Shown: piece after piece, positions 42,801 to 48,800 of the stretch | How positions within the stretch are numbered: the stretch's first letter is position 1 | Layout of the letters: the number at the start of each line of letters is the position of its first letter | Sequence record: NZ_CP041047.1 | Source: a plasmid | Length of the DNA: 64,000 bases | Strand: one strand, 5' to 3' | Program-made: the position numbers

Positions 42801-45800
42801 TGGTTACGGGCTTGCTTAATCCGAGCTAATAATCCCGCAGGACTCACCCGGGTGATGTATTTCTCTACCGTCTCAGCAGCCTCAGCTATGCCCGGGGCCG
42901 ACGACCCTTCAACATGGAGGGGGCATAATACAAGGCCGGTATCATCGTGAGTAACCCAGGCAGAATTGTCAGCCGGATTCCTGACGATAGACAACGACTC
43001 ACTTTGACCCAGGATCGTTAACCTGAATGACTGAAGCCGTTCGGCTATCCAGCTGCCTCCATCACCAATAACCTCAATGCGCTCATGACTCATACCGCAT
43101 CACCTCTGCAAGTGCTTTACATTCAGACCTAATCATAATGGCTTCCCCGTTCGCAACAAAATCAGGGTGAGGACAGGCATAGCCTAACCATACTCAGGAA
43201 ATTTACAGATATGTCGATCCACAAAACGCGCTCAAAACGCTCAGGCGCGTTTTAATCAATCCGATCGTGAAAATACCAGGGGGATAAGCTCAGAATCGTT
43301 CTGAGGCCATTCTGGCGTGGTTTTATCCCAATAACGGATCCTTTTGCGAATACAGATCGATTTCACAAGGGTATTTAGCCGGTATGAGACAGAGATGATC
43401 CGTTTTGATAATCAGAGCGATAAATTATTACTGGTTCCGTTTTGTTTACGCTTGTATCGGGAGGAATGTCATTCCGAACGAGGGTATCGACTTCGCATTG
43501 GCCGTTCTGATAGCCGATCACAATATCCAGGCAGTACGCGCCGCGACAAAAACCCCCGGAGGAAAACCATGTCGGTTATTCACTTTTGGTTTTCCCCGGC
43601 GATTAAAACCCAGGGCAACCTCCGGTTGCCCATAAAAACCCCCGGAGGAAATTCATCTTTCCTCCGACATCGAGCGGTTTGATTATTACCATGCTCAACC
43701 TTCCGATGTAAAAATAGAGAAAACCGACGCTATCGCTTCCGCTTTGTTTACCTTCCATATTCGCGCCCGCGAAATAGCCCGCTGCATTCCCCACCGTTCA
43801 TACCCGGGCGAAAACAATCGCGATCATATTGCGATCATCCTGATTCCTTTCCGTCGCGATAAGTCCGCTATCGCCTATAGGCTCACTAACAGATCGCCTG
43901 AAGGCTCACTAACAAAAATACCAGGTCATCGCCTGGTATTCATGTTTATCCGTTATGTTTACTCCAGAGAATATTGTATTTCTAAAGCTGTTTTCTTAGG
44001 TGAGTTATTCGAAGCGAAAGAGCCTGCCGAATTGCACGGTTTTTTCGTAGCTCATCACGCAACCAAATAAGCTGACCTTCATACAGTTCGATAAGCGCAA
44101 GTTCTCGCTGACTTGCGTCCTTAAATTTCGCAGGTGGATATGATTCGCCTTTGTTGAGAGGTAGGTATTTGGGGACGACACGATCAATGCCTCCACCAGC
44201 TTTGCGTAAAGGAGTCAATCTGGCCCAGCGGATCCTGATAGTTGTTCCTTGCCTGGTTACGTTAAAACTGTACCGCGCCTTCTCGTCGTCAGCGATAGCT
44301 TTCTCCCAATATTCCTCCCGAAGACTATTGGCTTCGTTAAACAGAAGTTCTGCGGCTGAATCAACCGCATCGCGAGCCTTTTCCAGATCATTGATATACC
44401 CGACGAGTTGCATAAAACTACCTCGATGATTTTTGATTAGGACTTAACCCCAAAAAAGAGAATCTCTATTATTACGCCAGAACCCTACGTTTCTGGAGAA
44501 AGAGAAAGTTCCTTTTCAGGTTCGATTTTAAGTATTCAGTTCCGAAACAGGAATGATTGATTCTCCAGTTAAGTAACTTTCTGGGTGTTCTCATTTTTTG
44601 GATGTTTCTGGAGAATACAATGGCAATCTGGTGCTTGAGTTATTAATATCAGCCTGTACTGGTACTTTTATCAAGCCATTTTATTTTAATCAAGCTGTTT
44701 GCCAATCTCTATATGATATGGCAGAAAACTACGTTTCTGGGCATTTCTATTTTTTCATAGGTTTCTGGGGAATATAATGGAAACTTACTTTCTCTGACGT
44801 AAAGGTGATTGACGAGATGATTGCCGTCACTGCATAGACCTCATCGTTAGCGCTTATGTGGAATCGCTATATGATATGGCAGAAACCCAGGCTTCTGGAC
44901 TTTACCGTTTTGACTACCTTTCTGGGGAATACAATGGCAACCAGACCGAAAACAGCCTTACACTTTCACTTGTCTTCAGGATCAATCCTAAATTACATCG
45001 TTATCATGGTGATTCAGGTCACATTTCATAGGTATATATACTAGTTTGAGAGAGTGTTTTTTGGGGTAAAATGAAGGTTTAAAATGCATATTTAAGTGAA
45101 ATTCTTTCTTGTTCTTAAGTCAAATTTTAACGGGATGCCACCTTGAAAAATCCCCACAGCATTCCTTAACTCACGTCTCCTTAACTTGCCTGTCCAGTAT
45201 ATATACTCCGTCAAATTCCCAGGCGGAAAGCCTATCTAAAAGCGTTGTCCTCACAAATTATCATCTAATTTACCCAGTCTAATTTAAGTTAGGGGTTGAT
45301 GATTTTAAGGCTAGATTTAGCCATATATAGTGTCATGTTTCATGCAGCATTTATGTACATAACGGACATCTTAAGCGTCCAAATCTAGCCATTATTAACG
45401 TCAAAAATGGGGGCGTTTTGCCGATAAAAAAAATGGTATTCAATTATCGTTTGAATACCATGTAACAACTTGTTAACGGTTTATTCCCGACGTTGGCAGG
45501 GGGAGGCCACCTTTCATTACGTTAGTGCGACCCCCTTTTTTGGCGCTCAAATGTTATCGGAGTGGCAGTAATTCATTTTTAACTTGCAGGGTTAACGAAT
45601 GAGCAATGACAAATTGGTTGTCTGCGGAATTGATATTGGGTACAGCAATGTAAAAATTGCTGTCGGGGATCCAGCGGATGACAAACCCACAGTCAGTATT
45701 TATCCGGCCTACGCAACGAATGAGGCTGTAGAAGATGTGCGGCTGGTAAAGCGTAACTGCGAACACGAAGTGCTTGTCTACCCAGGCGGTAAAGAATGGC

Positions 45801-48800
45801 GGGCTTTTACCGAACGCCCCGATGCACGGGAGTTGCATGACCGTTACCACATGACAGAAATGTACCTGGCGCTATATCTGGCCTCACTGGATAAAATAGC
45901 CGCTAAATCTGGCAATGACATCGATCTGGTAGTAACAGGTTTACCTGTTCGTCTAGCCAACGATAGCGAACGCGCAAAACTTACCGCTAGGCTCACCGGG
46001 ACGTTTACCATTGCGCCTGGAAAAACAGTGACTGTTAAAAAATGCCTTGTTCTTCAGCAGGGCGTAGGTGTCATCAATGACATCGTTAACAGACCAGGCC
46101 TTATCAGCCAGGAAGAGTTAGAGAAGGCGACTATTCTCGTGGTTGACCCAGGCTTCTTCTCGATGGACTACATCGCCTTTAAGAGCGGGAGCCGGGTATC
46201 AGGCTCTTCAGGTTCATCACTAAAAGCAACCAGTGCAATTATTGAAAGCATTGTGAATCGCCTTAATGCCGTTAACCCGGAAGAGCGTATCGATGATTTA
46301 CCAGAAATCATTGAAATCGCTCTCCGTAACAATGAACCATCTTTCTTTAATGGGTTCCGCCACATTCCCCTACGCCCTCTGCTTGAAGAAGCAATTCCCT
46401 CCATCGCCAGTGATGTAGTCAAAGAGTTGCGAAAATCGACAAGGGTTCTTGGGCCAGTCCATATCATTGCAGCTGCCGGTGGTGGGACTGGTTTCTATGA
46501 ACAGACTATTCGTGAGGAATTCCCCCGAGCCAGGATCGTATCGAGCCCGTTGCCTGTTGCCAGTAATGCTATCGGTTTCTGGAACTATGGCGTTGACTTG
46601 ATGCTTTACGGTGACGATTGAGCAAAGGGGGGTTCATGCAAGTTCGAGTGACGATTAATCCAATACTGTTTCCAGAGCTGATTAATTATCTGGAATCAAA
46701 ACCGTCTGGCCAGCGTAGTAGTTCTCTATTGGCGCTGGCGAACCGAGCATTGCTAGCGGGTGACAATTTTATACCCGGTGTCGTCCGTGAGACTTCAAAA
46801 AAACGTAAATCAGAACAGAAGAAATCAGTCCGTGGGCCGAATATAGAAAAGGAGACTGGTCTGATGACTAGTCAAAGAGACGGCCACTTACCCAAAGAAA
46901 ATGAGGACAAGGAACCAAAATTTCGTCACGTGGTTAGCGACGATATAGTCAATACAGGCCCGCCGTTTGGTGAGGGCGATGATATTCAGCATCTCGAAGT
47001 AAACGATGGACAGTTATCGACGGCGAACCTAATCAGTCAGCCTGAGCTTACTGGAAACGAACCGGAGCCCAATCCCGGAGATAAATCGGGTTTTGGGGAG
47101 GCAGGTAACAATCAAGGTAGCGGCGTTAATGTAAAGGGTACACCAAGGCGTGTACGCATAAGTTGATGCCATCGTAGGGTTAGTGGGGAGGGGGGAAATG
47201 CAGAAAGCAACGAAGAGTTTGGTGCTCGCTTTACTATGTGCTGCTTACTGCACGAGTTCGAACGCCAGGCTTGTAGATCTTCGTGGCACTTCCTGGGAAA
47301 AACATTCCCAGAAAGAGTGTGGTCTCGATCCGTACCTTCTCTACGCGGTGGCACTCACCGAGAGTAAAAAAAATGCAGGAACCAAGGGGTATGTTGTTCC
47401 GAGCCCCTGGGCATTGAACAACTATGTTTATGGGTCGTATTACCCGACAAGTTATGAAGATGCCAAGAGAGCGCTAGCCCGCTACCTCTCTGCCACTCCG
47501 GTAACAGATATTGGAATCGTTCAAATTAATTTTCGTTGGAACGGACAGTATGTTAACCATCCTGAAGAACTCTTGGATATCGATACAAACATCCGAATCG
47601 GGGCAAAGACTTTGTGTGCGGCCATCAAAGCTAACCCTGGTGATATAGAACTGGCGATAGGTGGATACAACACTCAAAACCCTAAGTTGGAAGGCAAGGC
47701 TCGTGAATATGGTCAGCGCGTATTACGCGTATGGAAGAGGCTTATCGAAAATGATTAATCAAAATTTGTATTTTCTACAGACTGCCATCTCAATTATTAC
47801 CCGTGCGCAATCGTTGTATAAAAGCCCTTTTGAGTTAGCAGAAGGAGACCGGGAGTTCTTGATTGAGAAAACTAATCAGGCAAAGCTCGCACTATCGATG
47901 GAGAAGTATGACTTGCCCATCTTTAATATCTGTCATGATCCTGAACGCAAGATTTCTACTGAGGTAGAAAAATTCGTTCGCCATGACTCATACATCCTGC
48001 GGCTTGCTCTGCTGGTATTCAGTATTCGTGTTTTCATTAATACAGGTACTGTCGCCCAAACATTCTACTGGTTTGATAATGAAAAAACCGTCCAGCTTGT
48101 CGAACGTATGGATGATGCACAGACAATTGATGCAATCATAACCGGCAAAATATATTTTAAACCTATTCGTCCATTTGCCGATTTAGTAGATTGTGACTTC
48201 AGTACAGTTATTGGAGCCCCCAACCCAACCTTGGAATTAACAGGCTACTTACAGTCGCGCTATTCTCATTGGAGTAATTGATTATGAAGGCTGCTCTTGT
48301 CCGGGATGAAGATAAATTTGCGTTAACACAAAAAATGGTAAAATTAGGGTTTCGTCGAAAAATCATTGTGCATTCGCTTAATGCGAGTGACCGCGTTATT
48401 GATTTTTTGCGTAAAGAGTTCCATCTGAGTGATGTATCGATCGGACGGCTTAAACATTCAGAAACGCTGCTCAACACGACACATAAAAAAGTTGAAGCAA
48501 CCAATTTTATGAGTATCTATCTGCGACGTTCGAAAGACCCAAACAACAGCGACAACATCGTTGATGTGGTTAGTGCGTTCGAAATTTACCGGGAACTAAA
48601 TCTAAAATTCCGCCCGGAAGAAGCTTCAAAAGTGATGATTGATGCCAATGAGGCCTGGACTCTTGCGCGTGATTTTCGGGCCGAAGAAATACGCATGGTA
48701 AGGTGTTTCCGTTGCGACCTTTCATTTATTTCTCCGCAGAGTTGTGACCGTCCACGGAAAAAACATATTTGTCCGTTCTGCTCTGATGCAGAAGCTGAAA

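Follow-up and report, generated by a model that had tools for sequence, protein, structure and literature searches.

The 64,000-nucleotide stretch of plasmid NZ_CP041047.1 analysed here (the window) carries an actin-like ATPase gene and a small partner gene (R), which together make up the second partition module that a large conjugative plasmid family usually carries. The 1.2-kb region between mobI and this parM-like gene would be bipartite: a repeat array on the mobI side may serve as the origin of transfer (oriT), alone or with accessory sites, and a pair of 22-bp sites on the parM side may form a centromere/operator bound by the R protein. The two proteins would constitute an actin-like partition module of the SrpMRC or IncC ParMR type, acting alongside the essential parAB, and R on its operator would also repress the master activator of conjugation. 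What the analysis shows directly is the homology and synteny, together with the repeats and how far they are conserved; the reading as a whole is considered reasonably probable.

Circular MOBH conjugative plasmids of 250-360 kb from Citrobacter, Klebsiella and E. coli match the window with 100% identity, which identifies it as backbone sequence from a large conjugative plasmid of the MOBH12 type and not a chromosomal island. The original prediction had seen hints of an island with an extrachromosomal phase, a hidden state that is needless given this identity. Its claim of an actin-like (type II-like) module in addition to a type I parAB is borne out, as the ParM-type ATPase and both ParA (13845-15098, minus strand) and ParB (12844-13848, minus strand) are encoded within the window. 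The coexistence of two partition systems had been taken as a plasmid or cointegrate pattern; the plasmid part stands, but the pattern is no unusual cointegrate signature, since parAB is likewise present in IncC plasmids and Rts1. For the IncC backbone, two partition systems are a described trait (PMC10954446, PMC4542580), and ParA/ParB-like genes accompany the ParM-like gene of Rts1.

The divergent layout of mobI on one side and a parM-like gene with a small protein gene on the other is already described for SXT/R391 (srpMRC), IncA/C, pAQU1 and pAsa4 (gene context in PMC4542580), and the same synteny is found in IncC, pAQU-like, pAsa4-like, Moellerella and Providencia plasmids. In srpMRC and in vcrx151/152 (parMR) of IncA/C, as here, the ATPase gene is divergent from mobI (PMC4489591), the small partner is encoded immediately downstream, and SLT, FlhDC-like activator and traG/traN genes lie in the neighbourhood (PMC4542580, PMC10954446); the ParM proteins are ~35% identical over 95% of their length. 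There, oriT occupies the mobI side and centromere-like repeats the ATPase side, an arrangement that the window appears to share. On the other hand, the intergenic region is 470-630 bp in those elements and 1185 bp here, the repeat motifs show no relationship, the module and slt-flhDC converge there but are co-directional, apparently co-transcribed, here, and the window module has no int gene downstream. The gene order is identical in orf246-orf252 of Rts1 (IncT), namely mobI, an oriT-containing spacer, ParM-like, the 193-aa Orf249, slt, setD, setC, a hypothetical gene and traN traG traH (PMC10838148), although Rts1 differs in its TAGGCA-type inverted repeats near mobI and in an iteron array near parM.

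The ATPase gene (45599-46621, plus strand) encodes a 340-aa protein of ParM/SrpM-like (ParM/StbA) type, as judged from domain matches, motifs and homologues. HMM classification, which had been suggested as a check, matched the N-domain full-length to Pfam ALP_N (8e-18) and the protein to the NCBIfam PRTRC_D and ParM models, both with scores below the cut-offs; the nearest solved structure is a ParM (8x1i, 1.4e-10). The predicted canonical phosphate-1 motif was confirmed as D12-I-G-Y-S-N-V-K19, invariant in five homologues together with phosphate-2 (D183-P-G-F-F-S) and the adenosine motif (G294-G-G). Identity amounts to 67% with the Moellerella protein, 50% with the Rts1 homologue and ~35% with the ParM of IncC, pAQU-like and pAsa4-like plasmids. 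PRTRC system protein D (TIGR03739) is the top-scoring NCBIfam model (2.2e-31 over the full length), and its Burkholderia and Cupriavidus members are 26-30% identical to the ATPase; however, the score of 109 bits is far under the 214.8-bit cut-off, and the gene context here is mobI, slt and flhDC-like rather than a PRTRC cassette. The type II prototype, ParMRC of R1, shares the ASKHA nucleotide-binding motifs and the order of centromere/promoter, actin-like ATPase and small adaptor, which in R1 also autoregulates. The sequence relation is nevertheless distant (37.9 bits against a cut-off of 417 for the NCBIfam ParM model PRK13917), and the ten-copy 11-bp iteron array of R1 is absent here. Between subclades the ATPase is 96% identical in amino acids vs 82% at third codon positions; on its sequence, ParM is under purifying selection, with all ATP-binding motifs kept. 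The other function that had been suggested, in the dynamics of DNA or pili, is poorly supported: transfer of R391 without srpM or srpR drops only 4- to 14-fold (PMC4489591), and none of the 32 Rts1 genes that alter conjugation when deleted encodes the ParM homologue (PMC10838148).

The R gene (46636-47166, plus strand) has its real start at the ATG at 46636 and encodes 176 aa, a candidate SrpR/ParR-like adaptor (hhalign) and a homologue of the Rts1 conjugation repressor Orf249 (BLASTP). A small, disordered, basic protein had been expected after the ATPase gene; it is present, and AF2 models it as largely disordered (pLDDT 49.6, helices confined to residues 13-20 and 27-40), but it is not basic overall (pI 6.3). 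The chain begins with a beta-alpha-alpha segment of ~41 aa and ends in a conserved basic tail, PRRVRIS, the two being joined by a long disordered linker; residues 46-80 include a K/R patch, and 81-165 are acidic. Similarity to Orf249 extends over the full length (E 4e-8, 25% identity), and 32 columns align with the short proteins of IncC, pAQU-like and pAsa4-like plasmids (hhalign, E 1.7e-4, probability 50%), a moderate degree of support for homology to SrpR-like proteins. No Pfam or PDB match and no similarity to solved ParR structures was detected, and the AF2 model is of low confidence, so a ribbon-helix-helix (RHH) fold is a candidate only. The invariant residues are P13, E14, L15, L19, R27, L31, L34 and A35. 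The N-domain differs by one residue in the pCAV1857-type variant and is ~71% identical in the Moellerella clade, where the predicted beta-strand RVTIN is the same; that of Rts1 reads VHVNVD vs VRVTIN here. The basic tail is kept in three clades, which would suit a peptide that binds filaments. Compared with the 91-97 aa partners of srpMRC and IncA/C, R has a different C-terminus besides its long linker.

Downstream, and all on the plus strand, lie genes for an SLT transglycosylase (47198-47758), FlhD/SetD-like (47751-48281, 37% identical to SetD of Rts1, Orf247) and FlhC/SetC-like proteins (48284-48814) and a hypothetical protein (48942-49712), which by gene order and short gaps make up the rest of a putative operon (47198-49712) ending at a bidirectional terminator (49714-49744). 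The first five genes, from parM to the FlhC-like gene, overlap or are separated by gaps of no more than 31 bp, a 127-bp gap precedes the last gene, and no convincing plus-strand terminator was found within the operon; parM-R-slt-flhD-flhC thus appear to form one operon. Its repression by R would explain why deletion of Orf249 in Rts1 raises conjugation 400-fold, an effect complemented in trans (PMC10838148). The authors of that study gave Orf249 no reported homology, did not discuss the ParM-like gene and proposed Orf249 as a functional SetR analogue (PMC10838148).

These data could also mean that ParM and R no longer segregate DNA, R being a repressor of the slt-flhDC operon, ParM dispensable or otherwise employed, and inheritance left to parAB alone. 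Besides the Orf249 phenotype and the lack of one for the Rts1 ParM homologue, this would agree with the persistence of natural IS5- and IS26-truncated derivatives without parM, with the growth of R from about 95 to 176-193 aa, with a long linker, and with IncC maintenance, for which parAB is essential and the parMRC locus is not (PMC10954446). It is nonetheless unlikely given the purifying selection on ParM and the conserved R tail, and the homologous srpMRC stabilises R391 and mini-F lacking sop (PMC4489591). The two roles are, moreover, compatible. ParR of R1 is both repressor and adaptor, and a partition module whose partner also represses is preferred here, although protein-site binding, operon structure, repression and partition activity are all features that we infer.

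The mobI gene (43982-44413, minus strand; Pfam MobI 1.1e-16; MobI(A/C) in the annotation of identical plasmids) encodes the oriT-recognition factor of MOBH12 relaxosomes, 59% identical to the Moellerella and 31% to the Rts1 protein. Between it and parM lies a phased repeat array (44464-44940; 38% GC vs 48% in the window). Three direct repeats with a period of ~160 bp had been reported; three modules (44579-44626, 44704-44783 and 44862-44940) do recur at 157/158 bp, far beyond chance, but they are not contiguous tandem repeats (TRF finds none), and a partial fourth copy, CTCTATTATTACGCCAGAA-N9-TTTCTGG (44464-44497), lies only ~50 bp from the mobI start codon. A full module consists of box1 (CTATATGATATGGCAGAAA), the inverted repeat CAGAA-N-TTCTGG and core2 (TTTCTGGGGAATACAATGGCAA). 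Within three mismatches TTTCTGGGGAATACAATGGCAA occurs three times (44605, 44762, 44919; 0.00 expected from shuffles), TATATGATATGGCAGAAA occurs twice exactly (44710, 44868; 0.03 expected), and neither has copies elsewhere in the 64 kb. The modules measure 48-80 bp, and their phase is fixed while the spacers are unrelated, leaving whole-unit identity at merely 57-71%. A sigma-70-like promoter facing mobI (44705-44678) is seen within the module spacing.

In SXT/R391, IncA/C and mobI-carrying mobilizable islands, oriT abuts mobI (PMC4489591, PMC5587640, PMC13635750), and the array, starting so close to mobI, is therefore read as candidate oriT and MobI-binding modules, an assignment by analogy that seems somewhat better than even. 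The IncC oriT lies in the 150 bp immediately upstream of mobI and needs only about 70-150 bp (PMC5587640), that of SXT is within a 298-bp fragment, whereas specific binding of SrpR in EMSA is limited to the srpM-proximal 251 bp (PMC4489591), and that of Rts1 is in a 455-bp fragment in one half or the other of the 895-bp spacer between orf251 and mobI (PMC10838148). At ~480 bp the array exceeds any characterised oriT of the superfamily, which counts against the assignment. The TATATTGGATATGGCA box conserved with IncC also speaks against it, as it falls in the R55 97-139 segment, which is dispensable for IncC oriT activity (PMC5587640). If the array is the oriT, MobI multimers would assemble on it and bring in the TraI relaxase; with a spacing of 157 bp (~15 helical turns), all modules would face the same side of the helix. 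A duplication with a regulatory function at most, for example of mobI promoter or leader segments, whose modules 1-3 act neither as oriT nor as centromere, is a very improbable reading of the array: the low whole-unit identity, the promoter towards mobI and the short IncC oriT would fit, but the cores stay exact while the spacers diverge (those of module 3 within a diverged spacer), and between 44432 and 44780 identity to the pCAV1857-type variant is 88-100% vs 82-88% at third codon positions. The Moellerella and Providencia clade has a similar arrangement with a long period of 169 bp but other cores, which points to selection for the layout itself.

The array had originally been taken as the module's own centromere, parC, with R binding the cores, ParM filaments pushing plasmids apart and oriT confined to the ~60 bp beside mobI or elsewhere. 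It is the sole statistically strong repeat family of the intergenic region, its cores are conserved, and its TATATGATATGGCA box is common to the Moellerella clade, whose R N-domain is so similar. Its position, against mobI and 659 bp from parM, is however the reverse of all characterised relatives, in which the centromere lies beside or across the promoter of parM/srpM (PMC4489591). The long period with unrelated spacers is also unlike the TCATTCAA iterons of Rts1 (phased at 11-bp multiples, 182-349 bp upstream of parM), the 22-bp units of Providencia and the 13-bp srpC repeats of SXT/R391 (PMC4489591). In IncC-type plasmids the repeats on the parM side are GAAAAGCAAYCTAAA pairs. The Moellerella clade has not kept core2, although it shares the beta-strand; the 20-mer 45303-45322, in contrast, is exactly conserved there, inverted, in a plasmid whose ParM is only 67% identical. 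A parC role for the array is accordingly doubtful.

The 20-mer belongs to an inverted pair of 22-bp sites, GATTTTAAGGCTAGATTTAGCC (45301-45322) and GTCCAAATCTAGCCATTATTAA (45377-45398), 54 bp apart and 201-298 bp upstream of parM, which by conservation and colinearity is the better centromere/operator candidate. The pair is colinear with the array of the Providencia/Moellerella clade (clade B); the GGCTAAATNTAGCCGTAAATCA 22-bp repeats of Providencia include an inverted pair 55 nt apart and lie 206-304 bp upstream of parM. No other place in the window comes within two mismatches of GGCTAGATTTAGCC. In the parM-proximal half there are two sites only, with no statistically supported iteron array (k-mer copies do not exceed those in shuffles), and the left site has three substitutions in the closely related pCAV1857-type variant, even though the R N-domain there is changed at a single residue.

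Abutting the pair is a promoter-associated box, CAAAAATGGGGGCGTTTTGCCGAT (45402-45425, plus strand), a candidate site for the FlhDC-like activator by analogy with the SetCD/AcaCD-dependent srpM promoters (PMC4489591, PMC4542580). It recurs upstream of tra operons: a near-identical copy (59229-59247) precedes the traF operon, and related boxes are found at 52568 (minus strand), upstream of traN, and at 37746 (minus strand); its CGTTTTGYCGAT part is kept in Moellerella and Providencia. The palindrome noted earlier at 45401 is present within it (45402-45420), but it is imperfect and, given these copies, not unique. A perfect palindrome with 11-bp arms, flanked by A8 and terminator-like on the minus strand (z -5.3), follows at 45433-45461; two uncompensated changes in its left arm in the variant indicate that it is not strongly constrained.

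Nine circular plasmids of 250–360 kb from Klebsiella, Citrobacter and E. coli match the region 44400–47200 with 100% identity, and some 80 further plasmids are about 90% identical to it. All matching plasmids are annotated here as 'MobI(A/C), ParM/StbA, hypothetical, SLT', and the annotated ones examined carry a MOBH relaxase. Because the remainder of the window likewise maps to these plasmids, including the genes for ParA (13845–15098, minus strand) and ParB (12844–13848, minus strand), the sequence is a plasmid backbone and not a quiescent island. The original prediction had recognized a plasmid-type pattern and a type II-like segregation module besides a type I parAB system, both of which are real, but the chromosomal island with a hidden plasmid phase at which it hinted is removed by the complete identity to circular plasmids. 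Its observation was essentially correct and its interpretation half right. The local gene order is mobI (43982–44413, minus strand; Pfam MobI, 1e-16), a 1185-bp spacer, a divergent plus-strand series encoding the ParM-like ATPase, a partner protein (R), an SLT protein, FlhD-like and FlhC-like proteins and a hypothetical protein, and then traN, traG, traH and traF on the minus strand. Plasmids of this kind, 250–360 kb in size, are common among clinical and wastewater isolates of Citrobacter, Klebsiella and Enterobacter, and their backbone is mostly annotated as hypothetical. It also holds a third partition-type gene (ParB/RepB/Spo0J family; 6896–8071, minus strand), about 5 kb from parAB, as well as RES-Xre and CcdAB toxin–antitoxin pairs. 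An Rfam scan of 43000–48000 returned no credible RNA family.

The actin-like ATPase (45599–46621, plus strand; 340 aa) matches Pfam ALP_N at 8e-18 across the entire N-domain model, and its nearest relative of solved structure by sequence is ParM (8x1i, 1.4e-10). The best NCBIfam models, PRTRC_D (2e-31) and ParM PRK13917 (1e-9), both fall under their curated cut-offs; for PRTRC system protein D the score is 109 bits, where 214.8 would be required. The ASKHA motifs DIGYSNVK (phosphate-1), DPGFFS (phosphate-2) and GGG (adenosine) are invariant in five homologues, which bears out the canonical phosphate-1 motif noticed originally. Judged by its sequence, the product is an actin-fold (ASKHA) ATPase of the kind that defines type II (ParMRC) partition; filament formation and plasmid stabilization have been demonstrated only for a distant homologue, srpMRC (PMC4489591).

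A mobI gene divergent from parM and a following small-protein gene recurs in IncC plasmids (two records), Vibrio pAQU-like and Aeromonas pAsa4-like plasmids, in all of which ParM is about 35% identical to that of the window, in Moellerella and Providencia plasmids of 220–385 kb (67%), and in the IncT prototype Rts1 (50%). The Rts1 block parM-orf249-slt-setD-setC is colinear with the window, each product being homologous, and the flhD-like product is 37% identical to Rts1 SetD. A profile search of genome contigs with the ParM alignment found no further intermediate clades. The SXT/R391 counterparts are srpM and srpR, and their locus stabilizes R391 and a mini-F lacking sop (PMC4489591). IncA/C plasmids carry srpRM orthologues under AcaCD control together with an essential parAB (PMC4542580, PMC10954446), and a 2015 review noted that SrpRM, MobI, a lysozyme-like protein and TraG homologues accompany FlhDC-like activators in SXT, IncA/C, pAQU1 and pAsa4 (PMC4542580). 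ParA/ParB-like genes are also present in Rts1, and the possession of two partition systems is therefore a normal backbone trait of the superfamily. By gene order, the window locus shares the SrpMRC and IncA/C ParMR arrangement, with the ATPase gene divergent from mobI and a putative oriT in the common spacer. As a whole, the arrangement is already known as a hallmark of the SXT/R391–IncA/C–IncT superfamily and is not a new kind of system; setting the mobI-oriT-parM-R-slt-flhDC block in this framework tells annotators its identity and yields concrete candidates for an oriT, a centromere/operator and a transfer repressor. One pKOX-type relative of Rts1 (CP124763.1, 4200–10180) was unusable for comparison: of its ParM homologue just the first 61 residues can be read, and frameshifts seem to affect the ORFs that follow mobI, either because the assembly is poor or because the locus has decayed.

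The R gene (46636–47166, plus strand) begins 14 bp after parM, at ATG 46636 and not at TTG 46618, and encodes 176 aa. As originally described, the product is small and mostly disordered by prediction, but it is not basic overall (pI 6.3), since a K/R patch and a basic C-terminal tail are accompanied by an acidic stretch. It is twice the usual size of a ParR adaptor, matches neither Pfam nor, in a profile search of PDB sequences, any entry in the PDB, and retrieves only close relatives (nine proteins) in a homologue search. The AF2 model has a short N-terminal strand and helices at residues 13–20 and 27–40, followed by disorder; its pLDDT of 49.6 was too poor for a fold search. This predicted strand and two helices are compatible with a ribbon-helix-helix (RHH) adaptor. 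The first 41 or so residues align with 176-aa Moellerella/Providencia proteins, with the 193-aa Rts1 Orf249, and with short forms of 91–97 aa whose genes follow parM in IncC, pAQU-like and pAsa4-like plasmids; the IncC short form is the published srpR orthologue. Eight residues (P13, E14, L15, L19, R27, L31, L34 and A35) are invariant in this alignment of eight sequences. The similarity to Orf249 extends over the full length (BLASTP, E 4e-8), and profile–profile alignment with the short forms (hhalign) gives E 1.7e-4 at a probability of 50% over 32 columns. All three long-form clades keep a basic C-terminal tail, PR(K)RxR, which could be the ParM-binding peptide expected of an adaptor. Orf249 was reported by its authors to have no homology (PMC10838148), and a putative ParR/SrpR-like nature of this repressor and its window homologue may be new.

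The spacer contains two sets of sites, of which the more conspicuous is an array of phased repeats (44464–44940) beside mobI and distal to parM. The original prediction took these repeats to be the centromere of the actin-like module. They are real, and the cores quoted are present far above chance. The array consists of modules of 48–80 bp placed every 157/158 bp with unrelated spacers, so that whole-unit identity is 57–71%; TRF did not detect the array repeats. A partial extra copy, CTCTATTATTACGCCAGAA-N9-TTTCTGG, lies at 44464–44497, about 50 bp from the mobI start codon. The array has a GC content of 38% (48% for the window), three CAGAA-N-TTCTGG inverted repeats, and seven same-strand copies of TTCTGG, the 64-kb window having 34 on its plus strand. 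Against the roughly 90% identical pCAV1857-type subclade, 44432–44780 is 88–100% identical, compared with 82–88% at the third positions of the mobI, parM and R codons, and the cores of module 3 are intact within a diverged spacer (68–82%). Apparent copy-number variants of the array proved to be IS5 and IS26 truncations, and the 'second places' of intergenic BLAST matches merely internal repeats.

In adjoining the 5' end of mobI, in its AT-richness and in its many direct and inverted repeats, the array matches the pattern of a MOBH12 oriT, for which it is a candidate. The IncA/C oriT comprises about 150 bp of AT-rich DNA that lies directly upstream of mobI and contains 14-bp direct repeats as well as short inverted ones (PMC5587640), and that of Rts1 lies in a 455-bp fragment from the stretch that separates mobI from the ParM-like gene (PMC10838148). 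The Moellerella/Providencia clade has a like design beside mobI, with modules spaced by 169 bp and sub-repeats of 88–91 bp, although its cores differ and only the TATTATTAC(G/C)CC and TATATGATATGGCA boxes are common with the window. The likeness to characterized oriTs is at motif level only: the array TCTGG(R)RAAT compares with ATCTGGAAT of IncC, pAQU-like and pAsa4-like plasmids, and the repeated CTATCTATCTGGAA(T) of which the oriT regions of these plasmids are made is similar to TTTCTGG(G/A)GAAT in the array, which we count as weak evidence. Helically phased 157-bp modules may be an unusual, possibly new, oriT-side design.

The parM side of the spacer holds an inverted pair of 22-bp sites (45301–45322 and 45377–45398), 54 bp apart and 201–298 bp upstream of parM. 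The 20-mer 45303–45322 is exactly kept, inverted, in the Moellerella plasmid, and the succession of site, 54–55 bp, site and CGTTTTGYCGAT box is colinear between the window clade and the Moellerella/Providencia clade. The centromere-like repeats of the relatives are on the parM side of the spacer: Rts1 has TCATTCAA iterons at multiples of 11 bp, 182–349 bp upstream of parM; in Providencia, four 22-bp GGCTAAATNTAGCCGTAAATCA units lie 206–304 bp upstream of it; and in IncC-type plasmids paired GAAAAGCAAYCTAAA repeats flank a GCCCCTTTTGGGCA palindrome, which we take to be the AcaCD site. The Rts1 iteron array (NC_003905, 18080–18247) is unannotated and of classic parC-like design, and no mention of it was found in the Rts1 publications consulted. 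In SXT/R391, SrpR binds specifically to the srpM-proximal srpC (251 bp; its four 13-bp repeats lie in the 5'UTR), and its binding to a 298-bp oriT-containing fragment is non-specific only (PMC4489591). On the other hand, the parM-proximal half of the spacer contains just two 22-bp sites, a k-mer iteron search of that half in the window plasmid gave no enrichment over shuffles, three bases of the left site are substituted in the pCAV1857-type variant, and the TATATGATATGGCA box of the array resembles an IncC box, TATATTGGATATGGCA, that is outside the minimal IncC oriT, in a segment dispensable for oriT activity (PMC5587640). In view of these caveats, the combined assignment of the array to oriT/MobI sites and of the 22-bp pair to the centromere/operator is regarded, from sequence comparison, as reasonably probable, and the 157-bp repeats, despite their strength, are most likely not the centromere, a role that now appears improbable for an array adjoining mobI. 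Covariation between the R β-strand and the site sequence rests on three clades only.

The right-hand 22-bp site abuts a palindrome (45402–45420), noticed originally, that also recurs elsewhere in the window. The box, CAAAAATGG(G/C)(G/A)GCGTTTTG, is located at 45402–45425 upstream of parM, nearly identically at 59229–59247 upstream of the traF operon, and in related forms on the minus strand at 52568–52586, upstream of traN, and at 37746–37763, upstream of one more gene block; the Moellerella clade retains its CGTTTTGYCGAT half. Judging from the srpM promoters, which depend on SetCD/AcaCD, the box probably binds the FlhDC-like activator of the plasmid, whose regulon it would then define. The parM, R, slt, flhD-like and flhC-like genes overlap or are separated by gaps of at most 31 bp, a 127-bp gap precedes the last gene of the putative operon, and no convincing plus-strand terminator is found before the bidirectional terminator at 49714–49744. 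We infer a parM-R-slt-flhDC operon regulated by R, which, when bound at the right-hand site, could repress the operon including its master activator.

Deletion of every Rts1 gene but repA has been reported by Murata et al. (PMC10838148); loss of orf249 raised conjugation 400-fold and was complemented in trans, a repression known only for Rts1, and the ParM-like gene was not in the set of 32 genes with a conjugation phenotype (PMC10838148). Repression of the activator operon by R would account for the Orf249 phenotype and couple partition to transfer control. A fuller model is put forward tentatively, and we think it rather doubtful as a whole: in the MOBH12 plasmids of the Rts1/Citrobacter–Klebsiella/Providencia clade, a ParR-like adaptor would have turned into a conjugation brake beside a three-module, MobI-wrapping oriT, and the Rts1 repressor Orf249, for which 'no homology' was published, would belong to the ParR/SrpR family. 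The plasmid would be linked to ParM filaments by a single RHH protein with a long disordered linker, and the same protein would repress parM-R-slt-flhDC from a centromere/operator abutting the activator box, so that segregation and the transfer decision would be read off one shared nucleoprotein complex; the adjacent oriT would consist of three helically phased 157-bp modules wrapping a MobI multimer.

Several minor elements of the spacer may be recorded. A perfect palindrome at 45433–45461 (11-bp arms, ATGGTATTCAA-N7-TTGAATACCAT, preceded by A8) resembles a minus-strand terminator (z -5.3); in the pCAV1857-type variant its left arm is altered at two positions without compensation. A GGGGG...CCCCC-T6 element at 45499–45541 was rejected as an attenuator, its hairpin not being significant (z 0.2). 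The entire array is bracketed by a 23-nt imperfect inverted repeat (44444–44466, TTAACCCCAAAAAAGAGAATCTC; 45048–45070, GAGAGAGTGTTTTTTGGGGTAAA; 78% complementary), perhaps by chance, from which GTGTTTTTTGGGG is found in the Rts1 spacer too. The palindrome GTATATATACT occurs twice, 165 bp apart (45033–45043 and 45198–45208), both copies being conserved islands in the most diverged part of the spacer when the two plasmid subclades are compared. Two natural derivatives (NZ_CP055583.1 and NZ_CP042535.1) carry IS5 or IS26 within the array or immediately behind it, and their parM-R region is replaced; these plasmids can thus persist without the actin-like module. The PLSDB typing of matching plasmids is inconsistent (MPF_T vs MPF_F), many being labelled 'mobilizable' or 'non-mobilizable' despite F-like traN, traG, traH and traF, and the family is probably more transfer-proficient than this typing indicates.
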